A stretch of 56,254 nucleotides of DNA, taken from the NCBI GenBank assembly GCA_963739305.1, contig CAVTZU010000026.1:1-56254 (forward strand), given 5' to 3'. Under the pieces are notes generated by a model. It saw nothing but the letters and a program-made list of their open reading frames with translations, had not been told where the DNA came from and did not search any database. The stretch comes from Candidatus Bathyarchaeota archaeon (GTDB taxonomy: Archaea; Thermoproteota; Bathyarchaeia; Bathyarchaeales; Bathycorpusculaceae). Of the stretch, positions 475 to 53,220 are shown piece by piece. The translations under genes were made by a program, and so were the position numbers. Position 1 is the first letter of the stretch, and each line of letters opens with the position of its first letter.

Positions 475-713
475 AACAAAAATCCTCTTTTTATATCGAG
501 AATTTTAGGCGCGCGCTGAAAATCACACTCTTTCAAACAGAAGGTTCAAGAATCAAAGTGTAACTCCGTTTTCCATCAAGAACAGCTTTGACTTCTTCAA
601 GAACAGCGAAGTAGCGCGCGCGCTTAAACTTATCTTTATGATATTCCGCAGACATTGGCAGTAACATAATTTATATACGCAATGAGAAACATGAAAGTGC
701 AAGGTGCGACATT

Positions 714-1217
714 ATGGACAAAACGCCAGACAACCTAAAAAATGCTTTTGCAGGGGAGTCACAAGCAAACCGGCGATACTTGGCTTTCGCTAAGAAAGCC
801 GATGAAGAAGGGCACCCTCAAGTGGCCAAGCTGTTTAGGGCAGCAGCAGAAGCGGAAACCGTTCACGCAATGAATCACGTCAGAATCATCGGAGAAGTCA
901 AGACTTCAGCTGAAAACCTGAACACAGCGATAGCTGGCGAGACCTTCGAGTTCAAGGAGATGTACCCAGGATATATTAAGACGGCAAAAGGTGAGAAAAA
1001 CGCGCAAGCAACGTGGAGTTTCAATGTGGCAAATCAGGTTGAACAGATACACGCCAACCTTTTCACGAAAGCAAGCAGCGCTCTGAAAACTGGCAATGAG
1101 CCACCGAAGGCTGAATATTACGTTTGCAGTGTCTGCGGAAACACGGTTGAAAACGAAGCTCCAGAAAAGTGCCCAGTCTGCGGAAACCCAAAGACAAAGT
1201 TCTTTAAAGTAACTTGA
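714..1217 (+). CDS. rbr: Rubrerythrin
   Basis: AFAGESQANRRY, EAETVHA, EQIH di-iron motifs and a C-terminal rubredoxin domain CSVCG...CPVCG. Confidence 0.95.
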   Translation: MDKTPDNLKNAFAGESQANRRYLAFAKKADEEGHPQVAKLFRAAAEAETVHAMNHVRIIGEVKTSAENLNTAIAGETFEFKEMYPGYIKTAKGEKNAQATWSFNVANQVEQIHANLFTKASSALKTGNEPPKAEYYVCSVCGNTVENEAPEKCPVCGNPKTKFFKVT

Positions 1218-1285
1218 GACCCAACTTCCCATAGCATGAGCTCTTTTTGTCATCATAGTTCTATCGAGCAAACTAACCTTGAAGA

Positions 1286-1627
1286 GTGCGTGAAGCCATG
1301 AACATAAAAACCCCGAGAGAGTTCTTCGAAAAAGAGCTACCGAGAAAATTCGACCCAGCCAAAACGGCGGGTCTAGACGCTGTAATCCAGATGAACGTCA
1401 CGGGACCCGATGGAGGAGACTGGACAATAATCGTGAAGGAAAAGAAAATGGAGATCAAGGAAGGAAATCATCCTGCTCCAGCCATATCTGTTAAAATTGC
1501 AGACAACGATTTTGTGGATCTGATCAATGGCAAGCTTAACGCCATTTCAGCGTTCATGTCTGGAAAAATCGCCTTCAAAGGAAGTATGTCCTTAGGATTG
1601 AAACTCGTTGATATGGGAATAATCTGA
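1286..1627 (+). CDS. SCP2 sterol/lipid-binding domain protein
   Basis: IQMNVTGPDGGDWTI...LINGKLNAISAFMSGKIAFKG is the typical SCP2 signature. Confidence 0.85.
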   Translation: MREAMNIKTPREFFEKELPRKFDPAKTAGLDAVIQMNVTGPDGGDWTIIVKEKKMEIKEGNHPAPAISVKIADNDFVDLINGKLNAISAFMSGKIAFKGSMSLGLKLVDMGII

Positions 1628-1684
1628 TGCAAAAAGTAGCGACGCGACTCTTGATCAGGATTCAACACGGACTTTCCATCCAAG

Positions 1685-3761
1685 TCATTTCTCAAGCATC
1701 TCAACCACAGTTTGGACATCTGTGATCGGAAGACTGCAAACCTTGTTGCGACAAATGTACGCTGTCGCTTTGCCTTTCAGGCCTGCCAATCTTCCACCAA
1801 AGTCAACTGCGCCTCCGATCACTGAAGCATCTTGCATAGGAACAAACGCCACAGTGATCCTTGGCAAAAACCTGCCTCCGATGGCCTTGAGCATTTCCTG
1901 CGTCTGAGATTCAGCTGGATCGCCGACAATCGTTACCTCCGAAGAAGGCCCAATGAGAAAATCAAGTACAATCATCAGTTCCGCGAAGGCGGCAGGATCC
2001 CGTGAAGCAGAATCTGAGAATGAACGCATCAATTGTCCAGCTTTGCCTTCAAAAGACGGTTGCCCCGTGAGACGGCTAAGGCGAACCATGTTGAGAGCCG
2101 CAACCGAATTGCCTGAAGGGTAAGCACCATCATACGCTGTCTTTTCCCGGACCAAAGTAAATTCAGAGTCCTGGGCTGTGAAAAAGAACCCGCTCCGATC
2201 ATCGTCCCAGAACTTCTTAATAGCCGTTTCAGTCAGTTCGACGGCTCGTTTCAGATATTTCTCGTCGAAAGAGCTTTCATAAATCTCTGTCAGTCCCCAA
2301 GTAAGAAAAGCGTAGTCATCCAAGAAGCCAGCTATATCCGTTTTTCCATCTCTGTAGCGATGCTGAAGTTCATTCTCTGCGTCGCACATTTTTTCAAGCA
2401 CGAAATCAACTGCTTTCTTGGCAGATTCGACGTATTCAGGCTGGTCAAATGCCCGTGCGGCCTTAGCCAAGGCTGCAATCATCAATCCATTCCAGTCTGC
2501 TAAAATCTTGTCATCCTTGCCTGGATGAACGCGGCTTTCCCGGCCAGCAAATAGTTTATGGCGGATGATATCCACACGTTTCTGAATTTCGTCCTTCGAA
2601 GTGTGTAGATCGGAGGCGATTTCACTCAAAGATTTTTCCTGGTAGAGTACGTTTGCTTTCCTTTCTCTCGGCGTTGGTGGTTCCTTCGAAGTTGCCACTG
2701 GCTTTGACGTTGAAAATTTTCGCTGCAAGGTCTGCTTCTTCTTTCGTTAATAATCGTCTGATTTCTTGTTCGGTCCAGAGATAGAACTTTCCTTCTTCAC
2801 CTTCACTGTCGGCGTCTTCTGCCGTGTAGAAAGCACCTTGACCATCAGTCATGTTTCGCAAAACGTAACTGATAATCTCGCGTGCCGTTTCCTTGTACTC
2901 TGCGTTTCCCGTAATTTGATAGGCTTCTGTGTAAGCCATCGTTAGCATTGCTTGGTCGTAGAGCATTTTCTCGAAGTGTGGAACGCGCCATCTTGAATCC
3001 GTGGAGTAGCGGTGGAAACCAAAGCCAACGTGATCGTAAACTCCTCCGAGCCTCATTGCTTCGAGAGTTTTCTCGACCATGTCCAATGCTTTCTGGATAC
3101 GGGTTCGTTTCCAGTATCTTAAAAGGAAAGCCAGATAATGCGCTGAGGGAAATTTCGGGGCTCTTCCAAACCCACCGTTCTCATCATCAAATTGCTTTGA
3201 AAGCTGAGCATATGCCTCATGCAAAGTTGACTCTCCGAGTTCTTCAGCGTGCGAAGCTTGTCTTTGTTCCTTTTCAGGCCCTCTGAGCAGATCAACGATT
3301 CTTTCAGCAGAGTCCACTAACTCGTTTCTGCGTGAAATCCAAAGAACCTTGATTCTTGGAACAAGCTCTTTCAGGCCAACCTGCCCGAACCCACTCTCTC
3401 TCGGAATATAGGTCGCAGCGAAGAAGGGTCTCTTGTCGGGCGTCATTATGATGTGGAGAGGCCAGCCGCCCGTCCCCGTCATAGCCTGGCAAACTTTCAT
3501 GTAAACAGCGTCTAAGTCCGGTCTTTCTTCACGATCAACTTTGATGCACACGAATGTTTCGTTCAGGACGCGTGCGACGGTTTCGTCTTCAAAGGATTCT
3601 TTTTCCATCACGTGACACCAGTGGCAAGTGGAGTAGCCGATGGAAAGGAAAATTGGCTTGTCTTCTTCCTTGGCTTTTTTGAAGGCTTCAGGACTCCAAG
3701 GATACCAATCTACAGGGTTATGGGCATGCTGCAATAGGTAGGGGCTTTTTTCGGAAATCAA
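1685..3761 (-). CDS. Thioredoxin-domain/six-hairpin protein (YyaL/SSP411, DUF255), one +1 frameshift near 2660
   Basis: [34 protein letters not shown] in 2622..3761. The C-terminal half ([24 protein letters not shown]) is in 1685..2728. Confidence 0.9.
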
Positions 3762-51771: not shown

Positions 51772-51853
51772 AGGACCACGCTGCGACACGTCTGGTTTCT
51801 CCCCAATAGCTTTTAGGATACGCGTCGCCCCATAATATTCCTGACGGATACAA

Positions 51854-52414
51854 ATGAGCTCCTGGGCAAAGAAACGCAGGGTAATGCATCGGTACGATTT
51901 AACAGCACGAATGTACAACATGCGCTACGAGAATGAACAAAAAGCAAAGATCGAAACCGCCCTCGAGAACATCAAAACAGAACGCTTCGGCTCAGTCCTA
52001 GACGTCGGTTGCGGAACCGGAATCCTGTTCGAATACGTCGATGACCGCGCAGACACCATAGTAGCCATAGACTTTTCCCGCAGCACACTCAAGCAAGCAA
52101 AAGAACGCCAGCAAACGATAAAAAAGGCAACCGTGCACCTCGTTCAAGCCGACGCAGAAAACATGCCCCTCCAAAACCGTGCCTTCAACTGCGTCTTTGC
52201 AGTCACCGTCCTCCAAAACGTTCCCGACCCGAACAAAACACTGAAAGAGATGCAGCGTGCCGCAAAGGACAACGCCGTCTTCGTCGTCACTGGATTAAAA
52301 AAGGTTTTCACACGGAAGAGGTTTCAACGGATATTAAACGAAGCCCACCTGAAGGTTCAGACGATGGAAGATGACGACTTAAAGTGCTACGTCGCCGTAT
52401 GCGTGAACGCATAG
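51854..52414 (+). CDS. Class I SAM-dependent methyltransferase
   Basis: VLDVGCGTG, IDFS, ADAENMP. Confidence 0.88.
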   Translation: MSSWAKKRRVMHRYDLTARMYNMRYENEQKAKIETALENIKTERFGSVLDVGCGTGILFEYVDDRADTIVAIDFSRSTLKQAKERQQTIKKATVHLVQADAENMPLQNRAFNCVFAVTVLQNVPDPNKTLKEMQRAAKDNAVFVVTGLKKVFTRKRFQRILNEAHLKVQTMEDDDLKCYVAVCVNA

Positions 52415-52687
52415 CACTTCGCCAAAAGAACATTCTCGAGTTCAAACGCAGATCCAATTGCACCCGCAAGCGCCGTTACCAAACAACATTACAAAAAACG
52501 TTACAAAAAAACACCCTAGGAAGCTTTTCTCAACTGCTTCCAAATCAAAAACCATGTTGAGTAAGCCTCCATCGTCCAAAAACCAACAAACAGACCAAAC
52601 ACAATCCCGCAGCCCCAGACATAAGGGTTTAAACGTAATGAACAACACTTATTTTCCAGATCCAAAAAAGAACCATGCAAGCCAAAA

Positions 52688-52762
52688 GGGGCTGTCGGCT
52701 AGTTTGGTCTAGGCTTGAAGCCTCGGGCGCTTTAGACCCCGGTTCAAATCCGGGCAGCCCCA
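52688..52762 (+). tRNA. tRNA-Pro(CGG), CCA not encoded
   Basis: GGGGCTG...GAAGC CT CGG GC GCTTT AGAC CCCGG TTCAAAT CCGGG CAGCCCC A. Confidence 0.9.
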
Positions 52763-53220
52763 CTCCCATTTGGGTTCAGAACCACCACTAATTATAGCGC
52801 GCGCGGAAATTTAGTGTAAGGTTTCTCAGAAGTGTTTAGTCTGTTGCCGCTCTCAAAACTATGGCAGCTCTTGCAGAGACTGATGTTGCTTGTGAAAGTC
52901 ATAGAAATCATTGTTGAATCACCTTGCTAATAAGTGCGTACGCAGGGACCGTGCAGTTGAGGAATTCAGAAGACTATGGAAGGAGCGCGCGCGCTTCAAC
53001 GAGCCAGCTTGACAGAAACACATCAGCACAAACATCAATCACAGACCTTCGATGAAAACATTCTAGGGACCCTCTGGAAAGTGATTGTGTGTTTTCGGTT
53101 TTGTTCGATCTTAACAGTCTTGACCATGGTTTTTTATTGTGACGCGCACGCTATAAGAAGGCTTTTCAGATACTTGTCGTTTACTTCTAATGGGCTACAG
53201 ACTTATCAGAGGCGTCATGT

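Follow-up and report, generated by a model that had tools for sequence, protein, structure and literature searches.

Contig C26 of a Candidatus Bathyarchaeota archaeon, analyzed here over its full length of 56,254 nt and referred to as the window, is punctuated by short palindromic runs of alternating G and C. The question raised by this locus is whether these runs are joints at which DNA segments have been put together, or signals of another kind. We favor, with a probability of about 55%, the explanation that the runs are a (GC)4 palindromic joint element that is inserted as a unit and used in segment shuffling.

The source genome (G000) has a size of 2.32 Mb in 36 contigs, with a G+C content of 47.4%; it is 97% complete, and 7.8% contamination or strain mixture is reported for the assembly. 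A run is an alternating G/C stretch of at least 7 nt unless a length is stated. Genes of G000 were called with a crude open reading frame (ORF) model made for this analysis, giving 2266 genes and 81.5% coding sequence. Genomes of relatives (G001, G002, G004, G005, G008, and G009), loci of relatives (L087 and the metagenome contig L088), and contigs from two sequencing runs (X1 and X6) were used for comparison.

An iterated (GC)4 word in excess between genes

A direct scan of the window found runs at exactly the 22 starts listed in the initial annotation and at no other position, together with nine more runs of exactly 6 nt. In G000 as a whole there are 501 runs, approximately one per 4.6 kb. 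Counts by length are 398 for 6 nt, 150 for 7 nt, 202 for 8 nt, 96 for 9 nt, and 48 for 10 nt. Because of the bump at 8 nt, this spectrum is not the steady decay typical of slippage. The phase is also fixed, with 178 exact 8-mers of GCGCGCGC vs 24 of CGCGCGCG. A dinucleotide microsatellite generated by slippage was rejected on the basis of the bump and the fixed phase.

The element has the core (GC)4, most often as A-GCGCGCGC-T, and 6- and 10-nt variants. Among 498 runs, A precedes the run in 54% and T stands at the second position upstream in 38%; downstream, T follows in 55% and A comes second in 40%. The shared flanks noticed earlier in the window (TAG- or -CTA, AG- or -CT) are thus real genome-wide, in the form of an A/T preference at two flanking positions. 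The commonest context in G000 is TTA-run-TAA, and the words AGCGCGCGCT and TAGCGCGCGCTA occur in 82 and 29 copies. No conservation was detected in the 498 runs beyond 2 nt on either side of the core, and the runs therefore do not belong to a larger repeat body, miniature inverted-repeat transposable elements (MITEs) included.

Most runs (393 of 501) are intergenic, within 18.5% of the genome. The count against a Markov null proposed in the initial annotation, split into coding and intergenic DNA, gave a strong intergenic excess: GCGCGCGC occurs 288 times in intergenic DNA vs 4.6 expected (63-fold; order-1 Markov model trained on intergenic DNA), and 60 times in coding DNA vs 21.4 expected (2.8-fold). 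Overall, 84% of the 8-mers in G000 are intergenic. Runs were found in about 298 of 1630 spacers (~18%), spread over all 36 contigs, and intergenic DNA of the window carries them at about 2.4 times the intergenic rate of the genome. The earlier description that only the run at 43887 lies clearly inside an intact gene is fair, since three of the 22 runs lie within ORFs (12624, 43887, and 50008) and the ORFs at 12624 and 50008 are weak.

Gain, stability, and decay of the runs

One run provides a comparison of filled and empty states. The spacer upstream of tRNA-Asp is well conserved among relatives. At position 47462 the window reads ...AAACCTA-GCGCGCGCG-ACTAGC..., whereas in G004, G005, G001, and L088 CCTA is followed directly by AC. 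The alignments to these four relatives are otherwise gap-free across this spacer, and L088 shares 89% nucleotide identity with the window. The 9-bp insertion has no target duplication. It sits between ...CCTA and ACTAG..., where there is no GC seed, and growth from such a seed by slippage was rejected for this reason. Judged from these alignments, run 47462 is a clean, recent insertion of a whole unit.

Runs also differ in number between relatives. Nine NreA loci from the same genus have zero or one run where the window has three, so the runs are not conserved regulatory sites kept in place. The differences between run 47691 and its L088 counterpart (Table 1) are of the CpG to TpG/CpA kind. 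Among the 24 single-mismatch variants of the core in G000, the two central transitions are present in 39 and 32 copies (7–9 times the expectation) and the four central transversions in 5–13 copies each. Decayed runs, e.g., GCGGGCGC and GCGTGTGTGC, are located at the ends of module copies. Within-genome duplicates of 90–100% identity nearly all retain the run in both copies, as seen in 59 spanning alignments that are mostly reciprocal pairs from overlapping contig ends. The exceptions are point changes and two alignments of paralogs at 71% identity, and there was no empty-vs-filled pair among the 59. Collectively, the insertion at 47462, the retention of runs in duplicates, and the excess of transitions indicate that runs are born as units, are stable in the short term, and then decay by point mutation.

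Stretches duplicated at 90–100% identity were observed for the contig pairs C7/C31, C16/C22, C12/C21, C29/C35, C23/C35, C13/C17, C8/C30, and C2/C3, where approximately 250 bp around runs was compared in each case. These duplications fit the contamination or strain mixture reported for the assembly, and some repeat counts are inflated as a result. A different kind of insertion was observed in L088, where 2 kb (L088:6535-8534) has entered the tRNA-Asp promoter opposite window positions 47509-47517. It is flanked by a 9-bp direct repeat (AAGCTTAAT) and, from its sequence, looks like an insertion sequence (IS)-type element with target duplication, unrelated to the GC runs.

Runs concentrate at gene 3' ends

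Runs are densest directly behind stop codons, at 4.3 per kb over the first 5 nt, where they often share the G of TAG. The density is 2.0–2.8 per kb up to 20 nt past the stop and 0.6–0.9 per kb beyond 80 nt, and runs are depleted 0–30 nt upstream of start codons. As a separate observation, stop codon usage among the 2266 called genes is TGA 856, TAG 769, and TAA 634, and TAG becomes the commonest stop (51 genes) when the 113 genes followed by a run no more than 25 nt past the stop are taken alone.

The placement of runs beside tRNA genes had also been noted, and it holds. The tRNA-Asp gene (47559-47636) has a run 88 nt upstream and another 54 nt downstream, and a run follows tRNA-Pro(CGG) by 33 nt. 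Genome-wide, 9 of 50 predicted tRNAs, one of them an assembly duplicate, have a run within 35 nt of their 3' end (5–33 nt) vs 1.6 expected. Because tRNA 3' ends show the same peak, the association is with gene ends and not with stop codons as such. All four spacer types carry runs. Convergent spacers have 1.34 runs per kb vs 0.79–0.89 in the others, and 17 of their 32 runs lie within 20 nt of a stop vs 8.9 expected (P = 0.01). Divergent spacers, which contain promoters only, hold 0.79 runs per kb, similar to the 0.80–0.89 of the remaining non-convergent types.

Runs do not appear to take the place of T tracts. Tracts of five or more T are present in 20% of downstream regions with a run and in 24% of those without. 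When eight window run contexts were folded as RNA, all eight were no more stable than shuffled sequences (z from −1.7 to +2.1).

Runs at the borders of segments and gene modules

Repeat homology within G000 ends at runs more often than beside them, with 6.0 ends per nt within 3 nt of a run vs 1.3–2.2 per nt at 4–200 nt away; no more than 59 of the 491 runs contribute to this signal. A similar pattern was found between species. In the comparison of G001 and G002, 31 runs have a homolog, and in 12 of these cases the homology stops at the run, compared with 3 of 39 control sites placed 60 nt away (Fisher p = 0.0027). When a 208-kb contig of G002 (C2) was compared with 400 kb of G001, a single high-identity stretch was found (2.2 kb, 97% identity); it is flanked, at a distance of no more than 6 nt, by a run of G001 on the left and a run of G002 on the right. 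Since this stretch alone is shared at high identity, the comparison yields junction counts and no gain or loss events. No nuclease or transposase was found among the five proteins in and beside the shared stretch.

Several segments have runs on both sides. At 509-623, the window and G009 share the order run, 97-nt segment, run; G001 has a single run, followed by the sequence that follows the second run in G009. A contig of X1 joins position 50011 directly to 50992, skipping the HD-domain gene that lies between the runs at 50008 and 50975. On contig C9, a 730-bp gene module has runs on both sides and shares 93% identity with a copy in L087. The M48-like peptidase module (14589-15247) is 93–95% identical across three species whose core genes are approximately 70–75% identical. 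Its homology in the window and G008 stops at ...CTGATA-run, with unrelated DNA beyond, and in G001 and G002 the module is longer and starts right after another run. The small-ORF module (14031-14330) has copies of about 82% identity in G001 (at least four), on contig C8 of G000, and in G005, G008, and G002. Among six copies aligned from four genomes, four are full-length, and each of their ends has a run, intact or decayed, on it or close by. The other two are truncated at one common point, which coincides with a run in the copy G001c.

Patchworks were also found. The region C13:75100-76300 consists of at least five pieces of 140–220 nt in both orientations, 85–96% identical to separate places on C8 (three times), C11, and C14, and two of its junctions are at runs. 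A comparable patchwork on C18 has pieces from C17 and C19. Of the inter-run segments of 25–400 nt, 36 of 92 have similar sequence elsewhere in G000, assembly duplicates counted. The interiors between paired runs are mutually unrelated. About a dozen run-rich accessory regions were found, one of them beside the integrase. The densest clusters carry ordinary accessory genes encoding a serpin, a proteasome-subunit-like protein, a TBP paralog, an ABC-2 permease, an SDR, nitroreductases, and hypothetical proteins. A Pfam search of 20 proteins from run-rich clusters revealed no nuclease or transposase.

The initial annotation had interpreted the runs as crossover sites or scars of a site-specific shuffling process. 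The insertion at 47462, the homology ends, the run-module-run arrangements, and the mosaics fit joints of a shuffling process; the connection to a site-specific recombinase is unsupported, as described below.

The tyrosine recombinase and other candidate enzymes

Eleven runs (12035 to 15332) do lie beside the tyrosine recombinase of the window, downstream of its gene at 10877-11962, and an attC-like role for them had been suggested. We found no link to this recombinase: run-bearing spacers occur on all 36 contigs vs about eight integrase-like loci. Some other run clusters lie 2–6 kb from integrase paralogs (C13, C15, and C27), and others are not near any. The analogy with integron attC sites also failed, with no conserved arms, no fold, mixed ORF orientation, and a weak XerA score. 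Since nothing is conserved beyond 2 nt of the core, the runs have no recombinase-binding arms. ORFs between the runs at 12044-16085 are oriented −, +, +, −, +. In an NCBIfam search with E up to 0.01, the sole match of the window integrase was NF040815, the XerA/integron integrase model, at 34.8 bits vs a cut-off of 220.

The recombinase region itself (10857-11997) has a copy of 97% identity in G009, and G005 retains only the first ~188 nt, also at 97%. This suggests a recently mobile integrated element whose integrase gene was perhaps split on integration. A viral origin of the island was considered and rejected, as the integrase has no relative among viral contigs and a PHROGs scan of five island proteins gave only weak matches.

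Ku/LigD end-joining was examined as a source of runs, in the form of filler added at double-strand breaks. G000 has a complete Ku/LigD operon (C32:50048-53119; L177:6049-9120) encoding a LigD Prim-Pol, Ku, and a ligase fused to a 3'-phosphoesterase. A first sample of 31 genomes pointed to a link with the genus, with Ku in 8 of its 11 members and in 1 of the 20 other genomes. Terminal-transferase activity and in-trans synthesis have been described for the LigD polymerase domain (PMC8656161). The candidate was rejected after a survey of 301 Bathyarchaeia genomes. Of these, 89 have Ku, concentrated in a few genera; they comprise 4 of the 16 motif-rich genomes (defined below) and 85 others; the Ku-less motif-rich genomes include some that are 94–100% complete. 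Ku is thus neither necessary nor sufficient, and we consider this origin of the runs extremely improbable.

Other enzymes were searched for by domain. A search confined to C5 methyltransferases (PF00145) had no match in G000 and detected the domain in only 1 of 16 motif-rich genomes. The REP-associated tyrosine transposase (RAYT; Y1_Tnp, PF01797) had no match in G000 and was detected in 6 of 14 control genomes. IS630-type DDE_3 transposases were not found in G000, with positive controls. No z-alpha domain was found in G000, in a search that also matched in no control genome.

Distribution of the motif among Bathyarchaeia

The 10-mer AGCGCGCGCT was counted in the first sample of 31 genomes (11 genus members including G000, and 20 genomes of other genera). 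All 10 other genus members have 7–114 copies, and the 20 genomes of other genera have 0–1. In the wider sample of 301 Bathyarchaeia genomes that are at least 80% complete, genomes with at least 25 copies were classified as motif-rich. There are 16 of these, from at least four families, with 25–131 copies each, and a reversed control word has 0–5 copies in the same genomes. The motif is therefore patchy and not genus-specific.

The first 400 kb of contig C1 of G111, a motif-rich genome of another family, were analyzed in the same way. Runs of 7, 8, and 9 nt number 13, 19, and 9, the phase ratio is 15 vs 4, and A at −1 and T at +1 each reach 70%. Intergenic DNA holds 38 of 44 runs, with the same 3'-end bias as in G000. 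The patchy spread of the motif suggests a horizontally moving determinant.

A proposed mechanism and the alternatives

Under the explanation that we favor, the runs are copies of a very short palindromic element with the core (GC)4 that is scattered genome-wide and patchily across the class. New copies arise as whole units in DNA that has no GC seed, and copies survive almost only outside genes, most densely within the first ~20 nt past gene 3' ends. Because the core is self-complementary, any two runs or run-tailed ends could pair irrespective of orientation. If DNA broke and was rejoined at runs, the intervening stretch would be inserted, deleted, inverted, or exchanged. Examples of such stretches would be gene fragments, non-coding pieces, and accessory genes that travel singly, each with its own promoter. 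Where a run stands alone, it may have been newly inserted or may mark the loss of DNA that once lay between two runs, and the position 3' of genes may reflect tolerance of joints there and the need to cut gene-sized modules intact. More tentatively, and as a possibility that we doubt, some Bathyarchaeia might possess a gene-exchange platform without attC sites or an integron integrase. In this platform the 8-bp (GC)4 word would be a universal, orientation-free joint, written de novo into intergenic DNA, that brackets single accessory genes with their own promoters, and a horizontally spread enzyme would excise, insert, and invert these modules and transfer them within and between species.

Several observations weigh against joints used in shuffling. 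We could link only approximately 10–12% of runs to a homology border, and most lie in unique sequence. Comparison of breakpoints with runs, a check proposed at the outset, gave a divided outcome: homology ends are about 3-fold enriched at runs, and where the window retains synteny with G005 and G001, its island borders are mostly off the runs. Window-specific segment borders at about 22655, 28029, 33587, 38326, 41699, 43551, and 46554 are mostly not at runs, and 35996 is the sole border that is. The X1 joint between 50011 and 50992 is based on one contig at a depth of 5, and the L087 copy of the C9 module shares its ends but has no runs. A single clean insertion is documented, as the intergenic DNA of other species is too diverged to align (e.g., the spacers of 35996 and 52797). 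The 18.5% of the genome classed as intergenic includes genes missed by the crude ORF model. No enzyme was found for the runs, and every candidate link that was tested failed. Tolerance alone is inadequate to explain the 3'-end peak, because convergent spacers and tRNAs show it too, and this peak would also fit a selected 3'-end function.

Such a function is the basis of an alternative in which selection maintains the runs as cis-acting signals at gene 3' ends. They might bind a lineage-specific protein, act as a transcription roadblock or an insulator, or be a sink for supercoils or Z-DNA. Their location at borders would then be secondary, with genes travelling together with their own 3' signal. 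The steep density right after stop codons (4.3 vs 0.6–0.9 per kb), the peaks at tRNA 3' ends and in convergent spacers, the depletion upstream of starts, the same bias in G111, and the run that mobile modules bear after their stop codon are all expected of a signal. However, only ~18% of spacers contain a run, positions are unconserved between species, and divergent promoter-only spacers hold runs at an ordinary density. T tracts are no rarer beside runs, hairpins were absent from all eight folded contexts, and no z-alpha domain was found in a search without a positive control. A signal also leaves the 97-nt fragment and the mosaic patches between runs unexplained. We regard it as unlikely.

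The other alternatives have less to offer. Footprints or solo ends of a mobile element, either repetitive extragenic palindromes (REPs) or their paired form (REPINs) moved by a RAYT or a TA-targeting transposon or MITE with GCGC termini, could account for the TA...TA flank preference, the extragenic 3' location known from REPs, and modules bounded by two runs. This is very unlikely given that G000 has neither Y1_Tnp/RAYT nor DDE_3 matches, that the flanks contain no element body, that no stem-loop was found in the eight contexts folded, that interiors between paired runs are unrelated, and that the one empty/filled pair lacks a target duplication. Crossover sites of the neighboring tyrosine recombinase in an integron-like cassette array would explain the eleven runs beside the integrase, the clusters near its paralogs, and the single-gene modules with runs on their flanks. 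They have a slim chance, considering the missing arms and fold, the weak XerA match, the spread of runs far beyond the integrase-like loci, and ORFs that point both ways; a lone 9-bp insertion is also not a product of att × att recombination. A word similar to HIP1 or to uptake sequences (both compared below), iterated through a methyltransferase, repair bias, or biased DNA uptake and not acting as joints, would suit an octameric palindrome that is lineage-specific, present in hundreds of copies, and denser in recently transferred DNA. It is about as improbable, since the excess is 2.8-fold in coding vs 63-fold in intergenic DNA, C5 methyltransferases are nearly absent from motif-rich genomes, at least one copy arose by insertion and not by point mutation, and homology ends at runs.

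Comparison with known systems

In behavior, the GC clusters of yeast mitochondrial DNA are the nearest analogue. These are GC-rich palindromes that are sporadically inserted in intergenic DNA, shuffle and merge, and are preferred recombination sites; they are 30–50 nt stem-loops between AG or ACT direct repeats (PMC4478555). Like them, the runs are short, GC-rich, palindromic, and insertion-polymorphic among relatives, with recombination at the element. Unlike them, the runs have a core of 8–10 nt, no hairpin, and, in the one case observed, no target duplication, and they reside in an archaeal chromosome and not in an organelle. REPs are moved by a Y1 transposase. They are described as imperfect palindromes of 20–40 nt with a GTAG or CGTC head (PMC3733652). 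The runs resemble REPs and REPINs in being extragenic, mostly just 3' of genes, lineage-specific, and present in hundreds of copies, but have no stem-loop, no head, and no Y1_Tnp gene in G000.

Highly iterated palindrome 1 (HIP1) of cyanobacteria is abundant inside genes. This octameric palindrome (GCGATCGC) is hyper-abundant and lineage-restricted and has been tied to orphan methyltransferases (PMC5861425, PMC4390886). The run core is likewise an octameric palindrome many-fold over expectation in some lineages only; unlike HIP1, it is in excess almost exclusively outside genes and is not tracked by a C5 methylase. Neither GCGCGC nor CGCGCG turned up in a term search of the HIP review (PMC4390886). 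Integron attC sites are folded, structure-specific sites used by IntI with an extra domain, and their cassettes lie mostly in one orientation beside intI (10.1101/2022.02.06.479319). Runs share with them the short length, the association with recombination, and the position just past the stop of single-gene modules with accessory genes between. They differ from attC sites, including those of archaeal integrons, in being unfolded, in the absence of an IntI-type integrase score, and in ORFs that lie in both orientations. DNA uptake sequences and uptake signal sequences (DUS/USS) are short words confined to certain lineages, where they number in the hundreds and often lie immediately downstream of genes, and the runs match this description; unlike the runs, uptake sequences are not known to be insertion-born palindromic words or to be places where homology ends. 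No published description of such a motif in archaea was found in the literature searched, with supplementary files outside the search.

Features along the window

The runs and the modules associated with them are listed in Table 1.

Table 1. Runs, modules, and the recombinase gene along the window.
Feature	Position	Strand	Remark
Run GCGCGCGC	509..516		Left joint of inserted 97-nt segment
97-nt segment between two runs	517..613		In window and G009 (97% identity), absent from G001
Run GCGCGCGCGC	614..623		Right joint of 97-nt segment; 97%-identity match to G009 stops at 625
Tyrosine recombinase gene	10877..11962	+	Pfam Phage_integrase, E 1.2e-6; listed for context
Run GCGCGCG	12035..12041		2 nt past stop of ORF 12044-12640 (-)
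Run GCGCGCGC	12624..12631		Within first codons of weak ORF
Run CGCGCGCGCGC	12715..12725		End of dispersed ~45-nt repeat; homology 12672-12714 halts there, other copies continue differently
Run GCGCGCGCG	13554..13562		43 nt past stop of ORF 12929-13510
Run CGCGCGCGC	13682..13690		
Run GCGCGCGCG	13965..13973		End of dispersed repeat 13857-13963
Run GCGCGCGC	14022..14029		Left joint of small-ORF module
Multi-copy small-ORF module	14031..14330	+	TATA-like box; 77-aa basic ORF 14084-14317
Run CGCGCGCGC	14531..14539		24 nt past stop of ORF 14564-15202 (-)
M48-like peptidase module	14589..15247	-	93-95% identity with G001, G002, G008
Run GCGCGCG	15249..15255		Right joint of M48 module
Run GCGCGCGC	15277..15284		
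Run GCGCGCG	15326..15332		
Run GCGCGCGC	35996..36003		1 nt past stop of ORF 36005-36547 (-); edge of window-specific 2.4-kb segment
Run GCGCGCG	36667..36673		21 nt ahead of start of 36695-38053
Run GCGCGCGC	43887..43894		Inside gene 43782-44843, in frame as Ala-Arg-Ala
Run GCGCGCGCG	47462..47470		Clean 9-bp insertion (judged from alignments) upstream of tRNA-Asp
Run GCGCGCG	47691..47697		54 nt after tRNA-Asp; aligns gap-free to GAGTGCATAGATG in L088
Run GCGCGCGC	50008..50015		Left joint of HD-gene module; within first codons of weak ORF
HD-gene module between two runs	50016..50974	-	HD-domain gene 50219-50905
Run CGCGCGC	50975..50981		Right joint of HD-gene module; 19 nt after NucS gene stop
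Run GCGCGCGCG	52797..52805		33 nt after tRNA-Pro(CGG)
Run GCGCGCGCGC	52985..52994		

Genes of the window include those encoding an MtrH-family methyltransferase, NreA, NucS, and PKD/CARDB surface proteins. Three DNA-repair-type genes are grouped at 48112-51921, encoding NreA (48112-49470), the HD-domain protein (50219-50905), and NucS/EndoMS (51001-51921). CAGA/CACA-rich low-complexity tracts and their reverse complement (GTGTGTCTGTCTGTG) adjoin runs at 12755-12815 and 15256-15276. The two lie at either end of the 12.7-15.3 kb stretch and may represent the inverted termini of some unit or mere coincidence. The dispersed repeat of ~45 nt (TGTCGCGCTCGC...CCAACCC...AAAAACT) has at least six copies, located at 12669-12714 and 13917-13963 in the window and on contigs C8, C15, C28, and C30. 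One copy adjoins a tRNA-Ala gene on C15, and the repeat may serve as an attachment site or encode a small RNA.

A tRNA-Ser(GGA) with an intron was predicted at 43441-43547 by ARAGORN with introns allowed; it was missed by the default scan and by Rfam. A window-specific segment of 2–3 kb starts directly after it, and depth is very high there. In G001, the tRNA-Asp(GTC) orthologous to 47559-47636 has an insertion of ~30 nt in the D-arm region, and a contig of X6 has 32 additional letters between window positions 47608 and 47609, within tRNA-Asp. By their sequence and position, these insertions look like non-canonical tRNA introns that vary among relatives.

Implications for Bathyarchaeia

Bathyarchaeia rank among the uncultured archaea that are most abundant in sediments, peat, and soils, and to our knowledge gene exchange in this class is largely undescribed. 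The runs offer a simple, countable sequence mark that is insertion-born and is found preferentially at sites where segments were joined. Should the runs be working joints, recent gene flow and accessory modules would be readable directly from metagenome-assembled genomes, and the enzyme would become a phylogenetic-profile problem in which the contrast between 16 motif-rich and 285 other genomes should point to it. The runs might then also serve as a recombination site that is new, very small, and useful in practice. A selected 3'-end signal, on the other hand, would make them an unusual gene-end element in archaea that is not a T tract. A cassette-joint mechanism, if proven, would be categorically new.

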